Assembly: GCA_964347045.1 (NCBI GenBank)
Contig: CAYFXC010000024.1
Coordinates: 1 to 27,849, forward strand
From: an uncultured archaeon
GTDB taxonomy: Archaea > Asgardarchaeota > Hermodarchaeia > Hermodarchaeales > Hermodarchaeaceae
Length of the DNA stretch: 27,849 nt
Direction of reading: 5' to 3'
The position numbers and the translations under genes are program-made. Below are positions 1 through 27,693 of the stretch, one piece after another; position 1 is the stretch's first letter; every line of letters starts with the position of its first letter. The notes under the pieces were generated by a model. That model saw only the letters and a list, made by a program, of their open reading frames with translations, was not told the DNA's origin and searched no databases.

Positions 1-398
1 GTCTCGAACATGATCTCGGCCATCTTTTCACGATTGGCCCGAGGGTTCAAGGGGGCTTCGGTTAAGAGGATGGGGTGTTCGGTGGGGTCGATGCGTAAGT
101 CGTTGTAGAAGGTGTAGTGCCAGATTTTTTCCATGGCGGGCCAGTCGGTGATTTGGCCGTGGGCGATGGGGTAGACGAGTTTGAGGACGCCGCGGAGTTG
201 GAGGGCTTCTTCGCCGATGTAGTATTCGCGGGTGTAGTGTTCGACGTCGGTCATGTAGGCAGGATACTTGGGGTAGCCGATGAGCGTGGGGAACACGCTG
301 CGTGGCTGGTCTTCACCGGCGTAGCCGTTTTTGCTAAGGCCGGTGCCGTTGTCAACCACCAAGGGTTTGGCGGTGACCATTTCTTCTTCAGTTGCCAT
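1..398 (-). CDS. Actin (Asgard Lokiactin-type), 5' part; runs off the left edge of the window
   Basis: Manual translation from ATG at 398: [133 protein letters not shown]. It contains the actin phosphate-1 loop DNGTG, YPIxHG, MEKIWHxTFYNxLR and the [16 protein letters not shown] signature. SD-like AAGGAGAUGA lies upstream. Confidence 0.98.
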
Positions 399-507
399 TG
401 GATGAGTTCATCTCCTTCGAAGGGTTTTGGGTTTTAAAAGGGTAAGTCAGGCTGGAATACTTCCCAGGCTGGTCTTTGTATTCCCACAGTTAGTCCTTCG
501 AATTTTA

Positions 508-516
508 CTTTTAAAG
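508..516 (-). promoter_or_regulatory. Putative TATA box for the actin gene
   Basis: Minus-strand TTTAAAAG about 24 nt upstream of GGGAATAC (485-478), a plausible TSS. A second TTTTAAAA lies at about 432-439. Confidence 0.45.
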
Positions 517-713
517 ATTGAGGCGCCTTTTGGCGTCATCTCTATCAACGTTATTAGTGATGGAGATGTTGAATTAAACCGCAAACCCGTCTAGGTGAAG
601 GTAGCGCGGGTCGAGCCATTTATATGCCGGACTTTGTAGGTTTTTAGTGTAGCAACCCATGTTCTGAGAGAGCTCAACAGAGATAGAGAACCGTATAACC
701 ATGGTGGCATAAA

Positions 714-1379
714 GTGTCTGAGGGTAAAGTGCGACGCGTGATCGGCGGAGTCGAAGCACGCAAGATTATCCTCCGGAATCTTTTAGATGGTCCTCAGACC
801 GGCTTGGTGTTACGGGCCGCCATTGCCCGCAGGGTCTCAAAGCCCGTGGATGAAGTCTCCGATGCGATGCTCTATTTTAATTTGCAACATTTGGAAAACA
901 ATGGGCTGATTGAACGGTTCCGCGATGGTAAAGAGAAAGCTGCACGATTAGTTCCCCATGAAATTCAAAGCGTCCGGCGTGTACTTGGAGTCAATGCCCC
1001 AGTGGCCTATATTGGTGCCATTAGTGATGACCCAAGTGTTTTGCATGCGGTCCCCAAACGGATTCGAGCTGAAACAGCCTTTCGCCCTGAAAAATACCAC
1101 TACTTTGTCGAGGAAGCCGCCCGCCGTCGCTTGAGCGGGCTAACCCCGGACCGCGTCTTACATGAAGTTCCCGCAGATATTTTCTTGCATGATTTGGGCA
1201 AAATGTATGAATTGGTCTACAGCCTCTCCAATGATCTCATCCGCGAATATGCGATACTGGTTGATGTGACAGGGGGCGAGAAGGTGTGTGCCCTCGCGTT
1301 GTACCAACTAGCCATTGAGTTTGATTTGCCCTGTATTTTCGTCACGGAGCTGGGCACAGTCACTTGGATGCGCCGCTAA
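714..1379 (+). CDS. Winged-HTH (PadR/ArsR-like) plus C-terminal CARF-domain protein, putative ligand-sensing transcription regulator
   Basis: N-terminal wHTH pattern (ARKIILRNLLDGPQTG...SDAMLYFNLQHLENNGLIERFRDG). C-terminal Rossmann-like domain with CARF motif ILVDVTGGEKVCALALY...DLPCIFV. GTG start preceded by GGTGG. Confidence 0.8.
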   Translation: MSEGKVRRVIGGVEARKIILRNLLDGPQTGLVLRAAIARRVSKPVDEVSDAMLYFNLQHLENNGLIERFRDGKEKAARLVPHEIQSVRRVLGVNAPVAYIGAISDDPSVLHAVPKRIRAETAFRPEKYHYFVEEAARRRLSGLTPDRVLHEVPADIFLHDLGKMYELVYSLSNDLIREYAILVDVTGGEKVCALALYQLAIEFDLPCIFVTELGTVTWMRR

Positions 1380-1422
1380 ACCAGAAAAATTCTTTTACCG
1401 GGTTCTTGTGCTCGATATCGGA

Positions 1423-3603
1423 TTATGCAGTGGCGTTGTTTGTAAACTCATAAGGAAAATCAGTCTGGATGGGCACTATCAAACCTTTTTCGCGGAGATT
1501 AAAGAGCGCTTCAAATACTTCGATACGTTGCACGCCTTTATCCTGCAAATATTTGTCAACAAGCTCCCGAATGAAAAATGAACCGTTCGAGAGTGTAAGC
1601 GTTTTCGCTAGTGCATAAAGAGTGCGTTCTGGTTGAGAAAGCAAGAAGCGACTAACCTGTCCCGTGTGAAGGGTGTGAGGTAACCGGAGGGAAATAAACA
1701 AGTACTCATCAACAAGGGGAACCGCCTCGTTGAAGATGTTGAGTCGACCTGCCCAGTTTTCAAGGACGTCTTGGTATTGCTCTTCAAAGCGTTTTGTAAA
1801 TTCTTCCAGACGTTTATCGAGCTCACTATTGGGAGGTTGCCTGAATATCAGCGCATTACGTGTATATTGGCCGTCATGGACAATGATGTGAAAGTCGTGA
1901 TAGGTGATCTGTCGAAGCGAGGAGGTGTCATCAAGAGGTTCTGAGGAGCCCTCAGATTCGGTAAGGCTAACTCCAAAGGTTGTAATCGCTTGAATTAGCG
2001 CACTGACGAGGTTAGCTTTCATTTTACGATCCACAATTGGATCCAAGAGACATAGCCCTGTTTCTTTGTGGATAAGTAATATCCGTTTGATTTTGTTGAT
2101 ATCATAGAATGTATCAGCAAGCGCTTGGAGGTGACGACGGCGGATACGCTGGCGGGGAAGCAGGATTTGCTGACGGTAGAAAATGAAGAGGGCGAAAAGT
2201 AGCATGACTAGGATAACAGCAAGCCAGACAAAAATTCCACTATATAATGTTAGTGGAGAGATGGGAACCAAGCAAAAAACTTGCCAGAGTCCATCTTCTG
2301 CATTATTAATGATTAATACCTCGTCATCAACTACCCAGTTTGTATACAGAACGGTGTTACGTGTGAGCCATTCAATGCTCCATTCAGGGTGCACAGAAAG
2401 GTGGATGGTTTGATTAGTGATATCCGTTGGAAAATCAACTATTATCGTTAGGAGCCAATTCGCCTCGACGGAGCCTGGAAGAAACCCTGCTTGGACTGGT
2501 ATAGAATCTAAGAAATACCCAATCCATCTAACGTCGAACCCAACTACCCATTGATAGTAATCGGGCCAATTCACTGTCATTTGGTATCCAATGACAGCAC
2601 CGTTCAAAGAGAGAGGAGGTTGGTATTCACCACTATCCCAAATTCCTTTAGACGGAGAACTCAGGTTAGTGACAACGAGACCATTCACTTGCATATCGAT
2701 GTCAGTAGGATAGAGTTCTAGATTTACTGGAAGGATGGAGACGTTAAGGAATAAATCCCGAGTACGATATGACCACGAACTAAAGCGCCCATAGCAATCG
2801 CCTTCATCGTCTTCATCAGGAATAACATCATCGCGACAATAAACCCAGTTTATACGAGTATCGGTTGTGGCCTCAAAGGCACGGGCAAGACCAAAATAAA
2901 ATGTATGGTCATAGGTTTCCAGTGGATGGAGAATTAGGGTGCTTTCATTTGTATCAACCCAAAACCAGTATTCGTCTCCCGGTTCGAGAGTAGGAGATAT
3001 TGGAACCTCAATCCAATCAGTTAAGGGAGCAGAAGTGTCAACGAAAGTGTCTGCTGAAGTTCCTGGTTCAGCGCCATAAACACGGTATCGAAAGATCCCT
3101 TGGGTTGGTCCGCGAAGGTATATCCAAAACCCGTCGACCCGCACTGGTTCAGTTCCATTGATACGGAAACTCATGTAAGATTCTTCATCGGTCCAGATGT
3201 AGTCCTCAAAAGGACTATTGGCGGGATCATAATCTTCTACTGCTATTTGAATGGGTTCGGGCTCGATTCGATTAAAATAGAGGGTTTCCCTGTATAGCAA
3301 TCCTTGTTCAAGGGTTACAATTAACTCGGCATTACTGTTCCAATTTTCCCAAATGCGCTGATGCATCCAATTTAGTTGAGCAAAACGTGAACTTTGATTT
3401 TCAAAAGTTTGAGTAGCCCCAGCGAGATATGCCAAATTATTGTATGCCGGTGAATACTCCGGAAAAAAAATCAAAGCCTCATGAGCTGGACTATTGTGTG
3501 GTTTACCAATGGGAATTATTAGGAGCATTCCATTGATCAAGACTATTAGACAAATTGCTAGGCAGACTATATGAAGCCCGGATGCGTTCCGGGTTTTCTT
3601 CAT
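1423..3603 (-). CDS. Single-pass membrane protein: signal/anchor, beta-rich ectodomain, TM helix, cytoplasmic longin-like domain, C-terminal winged helix
   Basis: Likely start ATG 3603 (MKKTRN), with GGGAGGT upstream. Hydrophobic N-terminus. TM segment LYSGIFVWLAVILVMLLFALFIFY followed by RQRIRRR. Longin-type pattern ILLIHKETGLCL...LVSALIQAITTF...FTKRFEEQY...W.G.LNIF. C-terminal wHTH-like IEVFEALFNLREKGLI. Confidence 0.75.
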   Translation of the reverse strand: MKKTRNASGLHIVCLAICLIVLINGMLLIIPIGKPHNSPAHEALIFFPEYSPAYNNLAYLAGATQTFENQSSRFAQLNWMHQRIWENWNSNAELIVTLEQGLLYRETLYFNRIEPEPIQIAVEDYDPANSPFEDYIWTDEESYMSFRINGTEPVRVDGFWIYLRGPTQGIFRYRVYGAEPGTSADTFVDTSAPLTDWIEVPISPTLEPGDEYWFWVDTNESTLILHPLETYDHTFYFGLARAFEATTDTRINWVYCRDDVIPDEDDEGDCYGRFSSWSYRTRDLFLNVSILPVNLELYPTDIDMQVNGLVVTNLSSPSKGIWDSGEYQPPLSLNGAVIGYQMTVNWPDYYQWVVGFDVRWIGYFLDSIPVQAGFLPGSVEANWLLTIIVDFPTDITNQTIHLSVHPEWSIEWLTRNTVLYTNWVVDDEVLIINNAEDGLWQVFCLVPISPLTLYSGIFVWLAVILVMLLFALFIFYRQQILLPRQRIRRRHLQALADTFYDINKIKRILLIHKETGLCLLDPIVDRKMKANLVSALIQAITTFGVSLTESEGSSEPLDDTSSLRQITYHDFHIIVHDGQYTRNALIFRQPPNSELDKRLEEFTKRFEEQYQDVLENWAGRLNIFNEAVPLVDEYLFISLRLPHTLHTGQVSRFLLSQPERTLYALAKTLTLSNGSFFIRELVDKYLQDKGVQRIEVFEALFNLREKGLIVPIQTDFPYEFTNNATA

Positions 3604-3838
3604 ATTAACCGCTACCTCCCACACGCGATGCATTTTATTGCCAAGTGTGTTTTGTCAGCTACATGGTTCTTCGATTTCAGGAAATCAGTAGCATTTGACA
3701 AAGGTGAGTAGTTCAATAAATAGCCTGTTCCTAAAGTTCCAGCCACCTAGGTATTATTGACGAATCCGTAATGTGTTTTTCAGTAAAAGCCGACAAAAAC
3801 CCTGAAAATTTCTTAGTCAATGATGAATGGCACACATA

Positions 3839-4564
3839 TCAGGCTATTGATTCAACGTTGGGTGAAAAAGGAACCAAACCATCCTTATGGAAAATTGGGG
3901 TTAGATCATACCGATTTGGCTGGGCACAAAAGTAGATATCCCCTTCATAGCCTGCTTGCACCAATAAACTGCCATGCCGGCTCACCAAAAGCTCTCGAGC
4001 TAAATCTCCAATATCTGCATAGCCAGGAGGGCCTTCAGGATCTTTGATGCGGATAATTAGTTGATAGGAAGTAAAATCATCTTCCATTGAGATTCCATGC
4101 AAACTTCCGGCGGAAATGACTGAAATGGGTTGCCCGATTTTTGCAGCCAAGTGCCGTGCAGTAGTGGCTACATGGTCAATATTTAGAAATGCGCCGACAA
4201 GAATTGTTGCGGAGGAAGGAGGTCTCCCAAGGGTTCGGGTGAAATTACTGGTGGTTAAGATAATGGGTCGCCCTTTAATGCGCTCGGTGATAAAACTTCG
4301 GGGGGAGTTGCCAAAATCGAAGCCTGCAGGTGGGTGAGCATCTCGTTCACCAGCAAGAAACCCAGTTGGATAATGATAGATCAATTCTCGTGCTTCTTCA
4401 ACAGTAGGTACGGGGATGATTTTTGAGGCGCCATTTGCCAGAGCAGTAATAATGGTGCTGCTTGCCCGTAGTACATCCACTAACACAACTACATGATTCT
4501 GTTCCACAGCCTTGGCTAACGCGGCAGGACCGGAACTATGAGCAACTTCGAAAGAATCAGACAT
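3839..4564 (-). CDS. comB: 2-phosphosulfolactate phosphatase family (ComB-like) phosphatase
   Basis: Motifs VDVLRASSTI, LAGER, GFDFGNSP, TTSN, GAFLN and SMED. Confidence 0.9.
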   Translation of the reverse strand: MSDSFEVAHSSGPAALAKAVEQNHVVVLVDVLRASSTIITALANGASKIIPVPTVEEARELIYHYPTGFLAGERDAHPPAGFDFGNSPRSFITERIKGRPIILTTSNFTRTLGRPPSSATILVGAFLNIDHVATTARHLAAKIGQPISVISAGSLHGISMEDDFTSYQLIIRIKDPEGPPGYADIGDLARELLVSRHGSLLVQAGYEGDIYFCAQPNRYDLTPIFHKDGLVPFSPNVESIA

Positions 4565-4592
4565 GCTGGTAGGCTCCAGTGATTCATCTGGT

Positions 4593-5216
4593 TTAAAGTT
4601 TCGGAGAGACTATCTCATGTAGCTGACGACGATAACAGAGCATCCGATATATCACCGTGAGATGGCTCAGAACCGCAACCAAGATTAATCCCAAATACAG
4701 GGCGGGAGGAAAAAGAAATGCAACAACACTGGTGACAACCAATATGAAGAGCCGCTCAGACCTTGCAGCGAGACCCACATCGGTATCTGCGACACCGGCA
4801 GCCTGTGCTCGACTTCTTGTATAACTGACGAGTATAACCCCAGATACTGCAGCGGTAACCCACCACCAACTGGGCCCTAACTGGGGGTAAGGATTGGGCA
4901 ACCAAAGAAAAGGTAAAAGAACCACCACGTCGGCAACACGATCTAACAAAGAATCAAAAAACCCTCCAACCAGAGAGACCTGATCAGTTTGACGGGCGAC
5001 TTCGCCGTCAACACCATCTAGTATACCAGCAACAAAAACCAATAACCCGTAGAAGATCACCCAATGATACAAAGTGAGTACAAAAGCAGCAAGAGATGCT
5101 AAGAACAATGCAAGAACACTGATCATATTGGGAGACATATGAAGGCGAATAAAGCCCCGGGCAGTAAGTCGAACCAGGGGACCAAAAACCCGTCTAAGTC
5201 GAAACCAAGAAGGCAT
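4593..5216 (-). CDS. CDP-alcohol phosphatidyltransferase (archaetidylinositol-phosphate synthase-like)
   Basis: Signature DGVDGEVAR...GGFFDSLLDR, plus SPN, VSYTRSRA and RSER motifs; multiple TM helices. Confidence 0.9.
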   Translation of the reverse strand: MPSWFRLRRVFGPLVRLTARGFIRLHMSPNMISVLALFLASLAAFVLTLYHWVIFYGLLVFVAGILDGVDGEVARQTDQVSLVGGFFDSLLDRVADVVVLLPFLWLPNPYPQLGPSWWWVTAAVSGVILVSYTRSRAQAAGVADTDVGLAARSERLFILVVTSVVAFLFPPALYLGLILVAVLSHLTVIYRMLCYRRQLHEIVSPKL

Positions 5217-5233
5217 TTTAATCGCATCCGATA

Positions 5234-6244
5234 CTAGATATGCACAATATTCCCTTCAGTATCTAATATTACCGAATTTAGGTTTACATTTGAAGGAACC
5301 TGAGTATGAGGAAAGGTAATACATTGGGCTAATTCGGAATTCGCTTGAATAATCGTCGAGGGTCCAAGTGTGGTCCCATCATGAATAAAACAATTATTCC
5401 CTACCTGAACTTGTGTTCCTACGAGCACAGGCCCCATTATCTGCGATTGGTGACCCAAACTTAGAGTGGCACTTTGGATCGGACCATCAACAGCCGTACC
5501 CGCGGGAACATAGGTACCCGGTGGGCGAGGCATGGGTGGCCATCCATCGGTTAAGAGGTAGTGATTCAAATTAATAAGGTGCCTTGGTGTGTCAACATCA
5601 CACCAAACCCTATCCGTGATGGGTATACCTTGAATTATTCCCCCTTGCTCTAGCCACCGACACAATAGGTCATAGATTGTTGATTGAAAGGCCGAACTTA
5701 CTTTGAGACCCAATTGTAGGAATTCGGGTGTTACGCGGAGCGCAGGCAAGCTCGAAAAATAATCCGGAAGATAATCAGAAGATTGTGTGAATTTACTGAT
5801 TTGTTGGGACGCATTCATCTGAATCAAAGTACCCGCTTTTTTAGTCTCAGCGTCAAAGAGTAACGCCATTTCAGAGGGAGACGAACTGAGAAGGCGTAGA
5901 TTTTGTGGGGATATATAGAGATCAGCAGGAACTAAGATGAAGGGCTCCTGATTTGAAAGATAAGGAATAACCGCTTTGAAAGATGCAAGAGGACCTTGTT
6001 CCCAATCTGGAACCAGCACGGGTTTCACTGAAGAAGAAATAGAGGTAACCGCAAGGAATTGTTCTAATCGGTCTCCTGCATATCCGATTGTGACAAAGAG
6101 ATCAGTACAACCGACTTCGGTAAGGGCGAAAAGGAGATACTCGAGAAGTGGACGATTAGCAAGAGGCAAGAGCGGTTTTGGAATGAAATCGGTAAGGGGT
6201 CGAAATCGTGATCCACGGCCACTAGCTAAGATAATTGCTTGCAA
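5234..6244 (-). CDS. Sugar/polyol-phosphate nucleotidyltransferase with C-terminal hexapeptide (left-handed beta-helix) repeats
   Basis: AIILASGRGSRFRPLT..PKPL motif, WCDVDTP, and hexapeptide-like C-terminus. TTG start with GAGGT upstream. Confidence 0.88.
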   Translation of the reverse strand: MQAIILASGRGSRFRPLTDFIPKPLLPLANRPLLEYLLFALTEVGCTDLFVTIGYAGDRLEQFLAVTSISSSVKPVLVPDWEQGPLASFKAVIPYLSNQEPFILVPADLYISPQNLRLLSSSPSEMALLFDAETKKAGTLIQMNASQQISKFTQSSDYLPDYFSSLPALRVTPEFLQLGLKVSSAFQSTIYDLLCRWLEQGGIIQGIPITDRVWCDVDTPRHLINLNHYLLTDGWPPMPRPPGTYVPAGTAVDGPIQSATLSLGHQSQIMGPVLVGTQVQVGNNCFIHDGTTLGPSTIIQANSELAQCITFPHTQVPSNVNLNSVILDTEGNIVHI

Positions 6245-10635: not shown

Positions 10636-11706
10636 TCACCCTTCAGCACCTTTATCAGAGGCCGGCTGAGATTGGCCATGATCCGCCTTTAGAGTTTTCC
10701 GGAGTAATTGAAGTGCAAGCCCCAGAGCGTAATCACTTGAAGCAACACCATTTGCCCCTGCCGCTGAAGGGTGACCACCACCCGCGCCTCCAATCATTTC
10801 ACCTAAGGGCTCCATGACATCCCTTGCAAGATCAAGGCCCCTTTCACTGGTTACGGCAAGAGTTGAACGCGCACTAATACGAACTTCATCTTTTTTTGTA
10901 GCAGAAGCTATCGCAATGTCGGCGCCTAAACCGATTAGAGCCCGACAGGCACTAGCCTCAAATGATCGGATTTTAGTAGCCGCAATGAGAAGATCGAATT
11001 CATCATAAATCACAACCCGTTGGGCGGCTTTCAACCGAGCGACGCGTTCAGATTTATCTAGCGGTGTTGACAGAAGAGTAAGCACCCGTTCATAATCTGC
11101 GCCCTTTTGCAGTAACATGAGAAAATTTTCAAAGGTACTTTGCACGGCAATACGAAAGTGCCGTGAATCATAGACCAACCCACAGGCTAGCTGTGTTGCT
11201 GCATCCACAGTCAATTCATCGGAAACTTCATGCCAAAGCTTTAGGATAAGCTCGGCTGTTGACCGAATTTGGTCATCAAACAGAACATAATTCGTTAGTT
11301 TGGGGAGATCCCTATGCGGAGCATGATGATCTACACAAAAAATCGTGGAACCCTTTTTCGGTAGATTCGCTGCAAGAGTACCAATCTGCTCAATATTATT
11401 CAAATCGATTAAAATGATGGTCGAGTGCTTACCAAGATCCTCAGGGGGGGCGATTTCTATATCGAAAAATGTTGCAATATTTTTTGCAGAACGGTTTAGG
11501 CTTTCGGCAAATATCTGTGAACGAACCTTACCTTTTAGATGTAGAAGCTGAGCTAAGGCGGCAGCGCTCCCAATAGCATCAGGATCCGCACTCTGATGAA
11601 GAATTAATGCTACCTGGTCTTTTACCTTCTCTAATAGTGTACCAAGGAATTGGGAAGGATTAAGTTTCTTCAACGAACGTCCCGCCGTCTTCAAGATTAG
11701 ATTCAA
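10636..11706 (-). CDS. DHH/DHHA1 family phosphoesterase (NrnA-like)
   Basis: HQSADPDA, LID, VDHH, YDS and GGGHPSAAG motifs; conserved position after pfdB. Confidence 0.92.
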   Translation of the reverse strand: MNLILKTAGRSLKKLNPSQFLGTLLEKVKDQVALILHQSADPDAIGSAAALAQLLHLKGKVRSQIFAESLNRSAKNIATFFDIEIAPPEDLGKHSTIILIDLNNIEQIGTLAANLPKKGSTIFCVDHHAPHRDLPKLTNYVLFDDQIRSTAELILKLWHEVSDELTVDAATQLACGLVYDSRHFRIAVQSTFENFLMLLQKGADYERVLTLLSTPLDKSERVARLKAAQRVVIYDEFDLLIAATKIRSFEASACRALIGLGADIAIASATKKDEVRISARSTLAVTSERGLDLARDVMEPLGEMIGGAGGGHPSAAGANGVASSDYALGLALQLLRKTLKADHGQSQPASDKGAEG

Positions 11707-26196: not shown

Positions 26197-27693
26197 CTAT
26201 TTAATTGTTTCCTCATTCGCAATCTCCTCCCCTGGAATGACAGCCTCTTTCATACGCCCCATTTGTTTCCGAAGAATACGTTCAATAATTTGTATAAATC
26301 GATCTTCCTGACCGCGAGGAATGGTCGCACCAGCAGCAATATTATGACCTCCACCCTCAGAACCGCGCCCAATTTCATCAGAAGCTAGTTTCATCGCTTT
26401 ACCGAGGTCTGCTCCTGCTTCAACAATCTGCCGTATCGTTCGACCAGAGACTTTGACGCGTCCATCGTGAGAATAGACAAACGCTATGACTGGTTTTGAC
26501 CAGTCTAATATCCGCGAGTTTAACGCCATACCGGCAATTGATCCCACTATGGTATCAGGAACACGATTTTTCGCATGAAAGGTTTGGATAAGCTTCAGTT
26601 TCTTTACTGCATCTGGATCATCGGTTAACCATTGAAGTCCCAAAGCAAGTTGTTCGCGGTAATCTTTAAGAATTGTTTCAGCTTTTCGTAACAGATTCTT
26701 CCGGTCACCCATACAGATGGCGACCCCAATACCGCCTTGGTTAGAACGACCTGTAGCATTGAGCAATGTAGAAAACATGCGAGCATCACGAATGTAGCTA
26801 CCCTTCTCTTCACGAACCAGTGTGAATACTACACCTATGAGAGATTGGGCTTCTCGTGGCGGAATATTCTTTTTAAGCATGTAAGTAACGAGGGCGGAGT
26901 TGAGTTTCCGTTTTTCTTCTTTTGAGAGTGAGGCAATCGTACGCCACTGTTCACCTTCACGAAGCTCGATATCAAGGTCAGCAAGAAAATCCAAAGCTCC
27001 TTCAGGGTCGTTGCTAATCCCCGGAATATAGGGGTCACTGGTATACTGCAAGGCAATATGAATTGGCCGGGTTTCTCGTCCGAAAATTCGCATATCAATG
27101 GATCGATCGATCACTCCTGCGGCAATAGCATCTTCAACAATAATTTCTTTATTGAGACCTACAAGGTCGTGCTGTTTTCCACGATCTTGAATATCACCCA
27201 AGGCCCCTACAACAGCTAGACCCGCTAAATCTTCATTAGCCCCACCAAGGTGTCGGGCAACTAAATACGAAACACCCGCACCCGATATCTCATAGGTGGC
27301 ATCAAATCCATATTCATGAGGATTGACTTGGCGGATATTCGAGGGATTTTTCTTGTTTAGAGGAGGATGATGGTCTAAAATGAGAATTTCTGCATTGGTC
27401 AAAGTTTCCTCAATATAGGATAACTGACCACTTCCTAGATCACAGAATATAAACGGTCCTGGACCATTTGCAGCCAACTCAGAAAGATACATTTGGTCCA
27501 GTTGGCGGACAATTCGAAGATGAAATGGCGCATTTCGCCGAGTTAGCGCAGTTGCTATGATACCGGCGGCAGAAAGACCATCAGCATCCAAGTGAGAAGT
27601 CAGAAAAATTGGTTCATTCGCTTCAATCCAGTCATTGACACGGCCAGCCGCCGAATCGGCGATTTCTAAAAGGCGATCCAGATCTTTTGTCAA
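26197..27693 (-). CDS. RecJ/Cdc45-like DHH nuclease (GAN-type, GINS-associated)
   Basis: HLDADG, CDLGSG, LDHH, GALGD.QD, LNATGR and GGGHNIAAGA motifs; located between rps15 and rps3ae like archaeal GAN. Confidence 0.88.
   Translation of the reverse strand: MTKDLDRLLEIADSAAGRVNDWIEANEPIFLTSHLDADGLSAAGIIATALTRRNAPFHLRIVRQLDQMYLSELAANGPGPFIFCDLGSGQLSYIEETLTNAEILILDHHPPLNKKNPSNIRQVNPHEYGFDATYEISGAGVSYLVARHLGGANEDLAGLAVVGALGDIQDRGKQHDLVGLNKEIIVEDAIAAGVIDRSIDMRIFGRETRPIHIALQYTSDPYIPGISNDPEGALDFLADLDIELREGEQWRTIASLSKEEKRKLNSALVTYMLKKNIPPREAQSLIGVVFTLVREEKGSYIRDARMFSTLLNATGRSNQGGIGVAICMGDRKNLLRKAETILKDYREQLALGLQWLTDDPDAVKKLKLIQTFHAKNRVPDTIVGSIAGMALNSRILDWSKPVIAFVYSHDGRVKVSGRTIRQIVEAGADLGKAMKLASDEIGRGSEGGGHNIAAGATIPRGQEDRFIQIIERILRKQMGRMKEAVIPGEEIANEETIK

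Follow-up and report, generated by a model that had tools for sequence, protein, structure and literature searches.

The window analysed here is the first 27.8 kb of contig C24 in the genome of an Asgard archaeon (2.58 Mb in 83 contigs, 88.9% complete, 3.8% contamination). Two divergent genes lie at its left end. The first encodes an actin, whose first 132 codons occupy positions 3..398 on the minus strand (Pfam Actin, E 9e-38). Its open reading frame (ORF) runs off the left end of the window, which is also the end of C24, so the contig breaks inside actin. A full-length actin on contig C30 of the same genome is identical to the window actin over the shared residues. Since this copy matches eukaryotic actins at E ~1e-163, the window gene is assigned to the eukaryote-like Lokiactin type. 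The second gene (714..1379, plus strand) starts with GTG at 714, is preceded by GGTGG at 703-707, and encodes a protein of 221 amino acids (aa), referred to below as the regulator. The two genes point away from each other across a gap of 315 nt (399-713). An earlier note on this DNA had described a regulator gene sharing a 315-nt divergent intergenic region with Lokiactin, and both the coordinates and the identity of the actin were borne out. Few Asgard proteins are as conserved or as highly expressed as Lokiactin, and models of eukaryogenesis invoke a cell architecture that depends on it. We know of nothing reported on how the Lokiactin gene is controlled.

The regulator consists of two domains. 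In an AlphaFold2 model built with 15 homologues (pLDDT 92, pTM 0.86), aa 1-94 (714..995, plus strand) form a winged helix-turn-helix domain of the ArsR/SmtB/PadR/RosR type, with VIA-align Z-scores of 10-12 to RosR, CzrA, SmtB, HlyU and PadR-family proteins. The recognition helix spans approximately aa 49-62 (nt 858-899). Its residues S49, D50, Y54, N56, L57 and L60 are invariant in the homologue alignment A1, and D50, Y54, N56 and L60 are invariant or nearly so across the 61 rows of the actin-linked clade. The remainder of the protein, aa 95-221 (996..1379 with the stop codon), is a CARF domain. This part gave Z-scores from 15.4 to 10 across more than 15 solved CARF proteins, including Can1, Cad1, Cam1 and the ring nuclease Sso2081. 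The score to Can2 (8bao) was 15.4, at a root-mean-square deviation (rmsd) of 1.9 Å over 116 aa, followed by VC1899 (15.0), Card1 (13.9), Cdn1 (13.8), Csm6 (13.1) and Csa3 (6wxq; 11.4). The best Foldseek matches for the regulator were all CARF proteins. The superfamily has been defined by a six-stranded Rossmann-like core in which strands 5 and 6 form a hairpin, and by the signature [DN]x[ST]xxx[RK] just after strand 4 (PMC4012209). Both are found in the regulator, which places it in this superfamily: the strands run over aa 97-103, 125-133, 147-152, 180-184, 207-210 and 216-220, and an intact signature, D184-V-T186-G-G-E-K190 (nt 1263-1283), directly follows the fourth. At the end of strand 1, where a polar residue (S or T) is expected of CARF domains, lies G101-A-I-S104-D-D-P107. 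Position 104 varies among orthologues (D, G or S), and P107 is kept in 56 of 61.

This identity escapes curated thresholds. The Pfam PadR profile (PF03551) scored 17.6 bits against a gathering threshold of 27, and the NCBIfam Csa3 profile TIGR01884 scored 17.2 bits against a cut-off of 60.2, so the regulator belongs to neither family as defined. A profile search of sequences in the Protein Data Bank with the regulator returned weak winged-helix matches only. The assignment is clear from the AlphaFold2 model, from the fold searches and from one further profile, PDLC01987 (CARF_m5--CARF) of PADLOC-DB, to which aa 15-219 align over profile positions 9-195 of 195 (E 7e-43). This nearly end-to-end match means that the regulator belongs to a minor CARF family that had already been catalogued. 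Relatives match the same profile at E 5e-29 to 7e-54, distant orthologues and CRISPR-linked paralogues included; in the window genome, its only matches are the two actin-linked copies. The name CARF_m5 is said to derive from the CARF classification of Makarova et al. 2020. The earlier note's reading of the protein as a winged-helix CARF factor thus holds in both halves.

The regulator is predicted to act as a homodimer. Prediction of the pair gave an ipSAE of 0.53, where the best control gave 0.00. Among proteins of known structure, 20 of 30 solved as pairs of one chain attain that mark, as does 1 of 23 single chains. Contacts agreed to at least 95% between runs, with a partner pLDDT of at least 88. 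The predicted interface is made of aa 159-162, 185-201 and 209-219, which correspond to the strand-4 loop, helix 4 and the C-terminal hairpin, and it resembles that of solved CARF dimers; because of this resemblance, the result may reflect likeness to those structures. The signature loops (185-190) of the two chains are opposed in the model. The prediction is thus of a two-fold CARF homodimer with a ligand pocket at its interface.

The pairing of the regulator with actin was followed across the Asgard archaea. Of 400 Asgard genomes searched with a profile, 139 contained the family. Flanking regions were retrieved for the 30 best matches together with 40 others, picked across the families among the matches regardless of their neighbours, and actin was then located. 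In what follows, f1 denotes the genome family of the window organism, f2-f33 the other Asgard families compared, and L-numbers the fetched loci. This sampling yielded 58 informative orthologous loci; three more end before a neighbour becomes visible. The regulator adjoins actin in 53 of the 58, from 11 families. In 51 loci from ten families (f1, f2, f3, f4, f5, f14, f26, f27, f30 and f31) the two genes are divergent, with gaps of 135-596 nt (median 348), and in the two loci of f15 the regulator lies directly upstream of actin on the same strand. It is unlinked in the remaining five (f13, f16 and f17), although one of these is only 3.3 kb from actin. Separate look-ups of proteins at 85%, 40% and 32% identity showed the same pairing, which persists across families to approximately 30% protein identity. 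It is thereby confirmed that the pairing exceeds chance, and the synteny check proposed in the earlier note came out in its favour.

The intergenic region was aligned with those of ten genus- and family-level relatives. It contains a candidate operator at 537..568, an inverted repeat of 32 bp with 11-nt arms (CATCTCTATCA - 10 nt - TGATGGAGATG) that are 91% complementary. The left arm and the centre are nearly invariant in the genus, and the right arm varies. As the arms vary without compensating changes, an RNA stem is unlikely; no Rfam match was found in window positions 1-1500. A scan of the whole genome with a position weight matrix scored the palindrome at 49, its C30 copy at 48 and the next independent site at 21, near the 17-19 reached in shuffled genomes, and the palindrome is therefore unique to this locus. 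It lies approximately 40 bp upstream of the likely TATA box of actin (508..515, minus strand), which reads TTTAAAAG here and TTTATAAA in relatives and is conserved in the genus. On the other side, at approximately 70 bp, the regulator's own gene has its likely TATA box (ATTTATAT at 618..625 on the plus strand, within the genus alignment an invariant CATTTATATGC). A looser pattern picked out one other potential regulon site, C10:81027-81059, with four arm mismatches and a similar spacer, which overlaps the start codon of a 300-aa ORF. This candidate was set aside: approximately 0.5 such matches are expected by chance, and it is absent from the weight-matrix list. A half-site copy at 682-689 was likewise dropped, as it is not conserved in relatives.

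A related box was found in other families. It reads GATATC(A/G)TC(T/C)ATA, usually has an inverted partner 6 or 15 nt away, and sits approximately 20-25 bp beyond the actin-proximal TATA-like element in f5, f14, f26 and f27. A 14-mer derived from f5 recurs upstream of actin with one or two mismatches in f14, f27, f26, f13 and f30 (0-3 of 300 shuffles were as good) and with three mismatches in f17 and f4. Among these actin promoters are those of f13 and f17, families in which regulator and actin are unlinked. In f20 and f7, which lack an orthologue, the best match in 36 actin loci had three to six mismatches, mostly four to six, and no conserved upstream element of their own was found at family level. 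From its presence in f13 and f17 and the poor matches in f20 and f7, the box appears to belong to the actin promoter and to co-occur with the regulator.

Where does the family come from? A maximum-likelihood tree of 59 rows, obtained by a quick search, has one branch (SH-aLRT 94) with 13 paralogues on one side and every actin-linked or secondarily unlinked orthologue on the other. Six of the paralogues lie in defence contexts. Scans of the neighbours of five (L054, L065, L066, L070 and L072, mostly from f20) with PADLOC profiles identified Cas10 (E 8e-67), Csm3 with Cas1, Csx1/Csm6, CARF-PIN and viperin; the sixth, L076, is placed there by a Cas10-like match that shares its contig. A strict E/D-x-T-G-G-T-K motif is retained by the paralogues of defence loci. 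In the actin clade, the D, T/S and G of the signature persist, whereas the basic residue is R or K in only 38 of 61 rows. Because the tree of the actin clade follows the genome families, its topology suggests vertical inheritance of the regulator. Other Asgard members of the family still occupy CRISPR or defence loci, and the actin-linked clade appears to be an old offshoot.

This ancestry bears on the source of the signal. The earlier note had suggested a link from infection to actin through cyclic oligoadenylates. On this account, infection leads a type III CRISPR or CBASS-like system to make these molecules, and the CARF domain, by sensing them, couples defence signalling to actin levels. 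The intact signature in the family of the window organism, the type III CRISPR loci of the nearest paralogues and the solved CARF relatives that, from the titles of their structures, bind the cyclic oligoadenylates cA3, cA4 or cA6 are all in keeping with it. The expected generator, however, was not found. The genome search that the note had proposed for Cas10, CD-NTase and mCpol returned nothing above threshold: in the 88.9%-complete genome there was no match to Cas10 (TIGR02578, TIGR02577), mCpol, GGDEF or DAC, and SMODS reached a sub-threshold 17 bits only. Cas10-like matches were found in none of the 18 f1 genomes, 11 of which carry the regulator. Of the 89 genomes of f31-f33 taken together, 9 at most have such a match, and 79 carry the regulator. 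The regulator itself appears to be inherited vertically, like a core gene. Within the window, no CRISPR-like array was found. Besides actin and the regulator, the window has 34 ORFs of at least 110 aa; no cas gene was found among the 20 scanned, all of which are housekeeping, and the remaining 14, outside the scan, are mostly short or overlapping. The earlier observation that the window holds no cas, CRISPR or cyclase gene agrees with this. With no cyclic oligoadenylate synthase found in the locus or the genome, the regulator does not qualify as an ancillary (cyclic oligoadenylate-signalling) protein of type III CRISPR, and in the window organism its signal is taken to come from something other than type III CRISPR. 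A route from infection to actin via cyclic oligoadenylates is unlikely there, and we give this explanation only a very small chance.

Taken together, the regulator is probably a dedicated, CRISPR-independent, ligand-responsive one-component control of actin. The starting points for this reading are the fold of the protein and its family membership, the conserved pairing, the conserved and unique palindrome, and the fact that no known cyclase was found. In the proposed mechanism, the N-terminal PadR/ArsR-like winged helix would bind DNA, and the C-terminal CARF domain would dimerise and form a ligand pocket on the two-fold axis. The dimer would set its two winged helices on the palindrome at 537-568, between the divergent promoters. 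A small, probably nucleotide-derived ligand in the CARF pocket would then alter DNA binding and thereby the level of actin transcription, perhaps also that of the regulator's own gene. Archaeal activators typically bind upstream of the TATA box. As the candidate site lies upstream of the B recognition element (BRE) and TATA box of actin and not over them, we lean slightly toward activation. The second-messenger switch for actin proposed in the earlier note thus survives in part: the CARF fold, the conserved pairing and the palindrome speak for a switch, and the infection-derived cyclic oligoadenylate as its input is left without a generator.

Several observations weigh against this reading. 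The positions of promoters and transcription starts, read from the letters of the DNA, are guesses. The palindrome of the window differs from the f5-derived 14-mer at five positions, which is not significant, and would be a diverged version of the box; the palindromes of f31 have different arms. A universal TATCA half-site was tried and rejected, with 15 occurrences against 12.4 expected. The related genomes compared for the box are not independent samples. The box was also looked for upstream of the unlinked regulator genes and was not found there, and for this reason the tie between protein and box is one of co-occurrence only. Since the genome is incomplete, the absence of a cyclase is not proven. 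The f31 orthologues, which form the largest clade, have Pro, Ala or Ser in place of the basic signature residue that the family of the window organism keeps, and a nucleotide ligand may therefore not be general. Finally, the pair sits in a wider block of conserved gene order with genes for a 2-phosphosulfolactate-phosphatase-like protein, a CDP-alcohol phosphotransferase, a nucleotidyltransferase, Sua5, THUMP and CGI-121. This block recurs in f1, in L002 and L003, whose protein is of the f5 type, and in L005, which clusters with f2. Where actin has left, the regulator is still found by the phosphatase gene. Because the block is old and the regulator stays by the phosphatase gene, the adjacency to actin could be partly inherited order.

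Does inherited gene order account for the pairing as a whole? This is the main rival explanation. It holds that the regulator acts on itself or on distant genes and that the palindrome serves another factor at the actin promoter. That the pair is embedded in a larger block of housekeeping genes fits this account, as do the survival of the regulator beside the phosphatase gene in f13, f16 and f17 after parting from actin, and a box that stays with actin and not with the regulator gene. Mere inheritance does not readily explain why the two genes keep a head-to-head arrangement with a gap of 135-596 nt in 51 of the 58 loci, down to approximately 30% identity, nor why the box occurs in families that bear the regulator and was not found in the 36 actin loci of the two families without it. 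In addition, the genome offered no second site of this kind that would hint at other targets. We therefore give inherited order a minor, though appreciable, chance.

A further alternative concerns the CARF domain, which could be a mere dimerisation module in a constitutive, ligand-independent factor at the actin promoter. The substitutions in f31 would suit such a role, as would the Glu that the f2 protein has at the same position, the lack of any ligand generator among those searched for, and a predicted dimer interface that is made by the CARF domain itself. On the other hand, D184, T/S186, G188 and K/R190 are kept in the family of the window organism and in most others. Conservation to this extent, with P107 retained as well, goes beyond the needs of a mere dimer interface, and we consider a ligand-independent factor improbable. 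As a separate observation, the regulator gene of f31 runs 4 nt into the beginning of an RNase III-domain gene (PF00636, E ~1e-13) at L043:3287-3979, L056:3318-4001 and L047:3162-3998; these are the same orthologues that lack the basic CARF residue.

How does the regulator compare with known systems? The CARF_m5 profile matches it over its full length, and the profile name says only that the family contains CARF, not that it has a winged helix, is linked to actin or is independent of CRISPR. The family name had no mention in the literature searched. Csa3 of the Sulfolobales (Csa3a and Csa3b) likewise joins a CARF sensor to a winged helix in a small dimeric regulator. The structure of Csa3 bound to cA4 (6wxq) superimposes on the regulator at an rmsd of 2.6 Å over 115 aa, at the Z-score of 11.4 given above. 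In Csa3, however, the CARF domain comes first and the winged helix second, whereas the order is reversed in the regulator (aa 1-94 and 95-221), which falls outside Csa3. Unlike Csa3, the regulator has no cas neighbourhood and no Cas10 match in its genome, and its apparent target is a cytoskeletal gene and not cas genes. The PadR, ArsR and RosR-type regulators share the fold of the N-terminal domain and a PadR-like pattern in the recognition helix, but they use a C-terminal helix or a metal site as sensor where the regulator has CARF.

RtcR is a bacterial CARF-AAA+-HTH activator of the rtcBA RNA-repair operon that responds to a ligand other than a cyclic oligoadenylate. It offers a precedent for a CARF domain that controls a housekeeping operon and not a defence operon. 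Like the f31 orthologues, RtcR lacks the basic residue after strand 4 (PMC4012209). It differs from the regulator in being bacterial and in having a sigma-54-type AAA+ module and a different helix-turn-helix, and it was not detected as a sequence relative. Already known, then, are the CARF_m5 family, regulators that combine CARF with a winged helix (Csa3) and a CARF regulator outside defence (RtcR). The reversed domain order, the linkage to actin, the independence from CRISPR and the promoter box were not found in the literature searched, which did not cover the 2020 CARF classification. The claim that no such system had been described is accordingly divided: no paper on the pairing was found in that literature, but the family itself had been catalogued.

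The other elements of the intergenic region lie mostly on the actin side. The likely ribosome-binding site of actin is a GGAG within GAAGGAGATG (409..418, minus strand), kept in all nine genus-level relatives. The presumed 5' leader of actin contains a block at 448..487 (minus strand) with two copies of CAGGCTGG and one of GTCTTTGTATTCCCA, which is nearly invariant in the genus alignment. Exact direct repeats were also noted in this leader, the 9-nt TCCTTCGAA at 413-421 and 494-502 and the 8-nt CAGGCTGG at 448-455 and 465-472, and they are conserved in the genus. A further block in the genus alignment, ATGTTGAATTAAACCGCAAA, occupies 566..585.

Downstream of the regulator, window positions 1423-3633 (minus strand) encode a 736-aa receptor-like protein without a Pfam match, convergent to the regulator gene. 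Relatives within the genus keep the gene (its product has 731 aa in L001), as does the C30 copy of the locus; it was not seen in other families. It separates the regulator gene from the cluster of 2-phosphosulfolactate-phosphatase-like, CDP-alcohol phosphotransferase and nucleotidyltransferase genes (3839-6244, minus strand), which was also noted in L041, L063 and L005. In f13 and f16, which have actin elsewhere, the phosphatase gene is tail-to-tail with the regulator gene, and in L005 a gene for an Arf/Ras-type GTPase lies between the two. The housekeeping genes of the window encode exosome subunits, a proteasome subunit, SBDS, the KEOPS subunit CGI-121, Sua5, THUMP, an ECF transporter and two DHH phosphoesterases, and the closest relatives of the genome show 84-94% protein identity. 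The phosphoesterase genes, of the DHH/DHHA1 type, lie at 10636-11706 and 26197-27693 (both minus strand); their products differ in kind, NrnA-like DHH-DHHA1 in one case and DHH-CID (GAN/RecJ-like) in the other. In other organisms, enzymes of the NrnA-like DHH-DHHA1 kind can break down nucleotides that are short or cyclic.

The entire locus, with the receptor-like gene, the regulator and actin, is present a second time in diverged form on contig C30 (C30:1-3300, L009 and L010, corresponding to window 1-3205). The copies are 84% identical in nucleotides over the regulator gene, the intergenic region and the 5' part of actin. At the amino acid level, the regulators are 90% identical, the receptor-like proteins are 60-74% identical, and the actin N-termini are the same. 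Other genomes of the genus have one copy of the locus. The GC content of C30 is 0.49, against 0.43 genome-wide, and its copy either arose by duplication long ago or comes from a second population in the bin.

The regulator is a candidate, open to testing, for a switch that puts archaeal actin expression under the control of a signal. It offers a handle on the control of the Lokiactin gene in the form of one protein, one 32-bp site and one pocket. The CARF sensor domain is otherwise known from antiviral signalling, and the only comparable precedent for its recruitment outside defence, to our knowledge, is RtcR; the regulator would clearly exemplify the transfer of a CARF sensor from defence into core cell biology. 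A broader proposal can be made, which we regard as possible but doubtful. In most non-Loki Asgards, the regulator may represent an ancient one-component pathway exapted from CRISPR, in which a nucleotide-derived messenger read by the CARF domain directly sets actin transcription and is made by an enzyme other than Cas10, mCpol, CD-NTase, GGDEF or DAC. If true, second-messenger control of the cytoskeleton would predate the eukaryotes.

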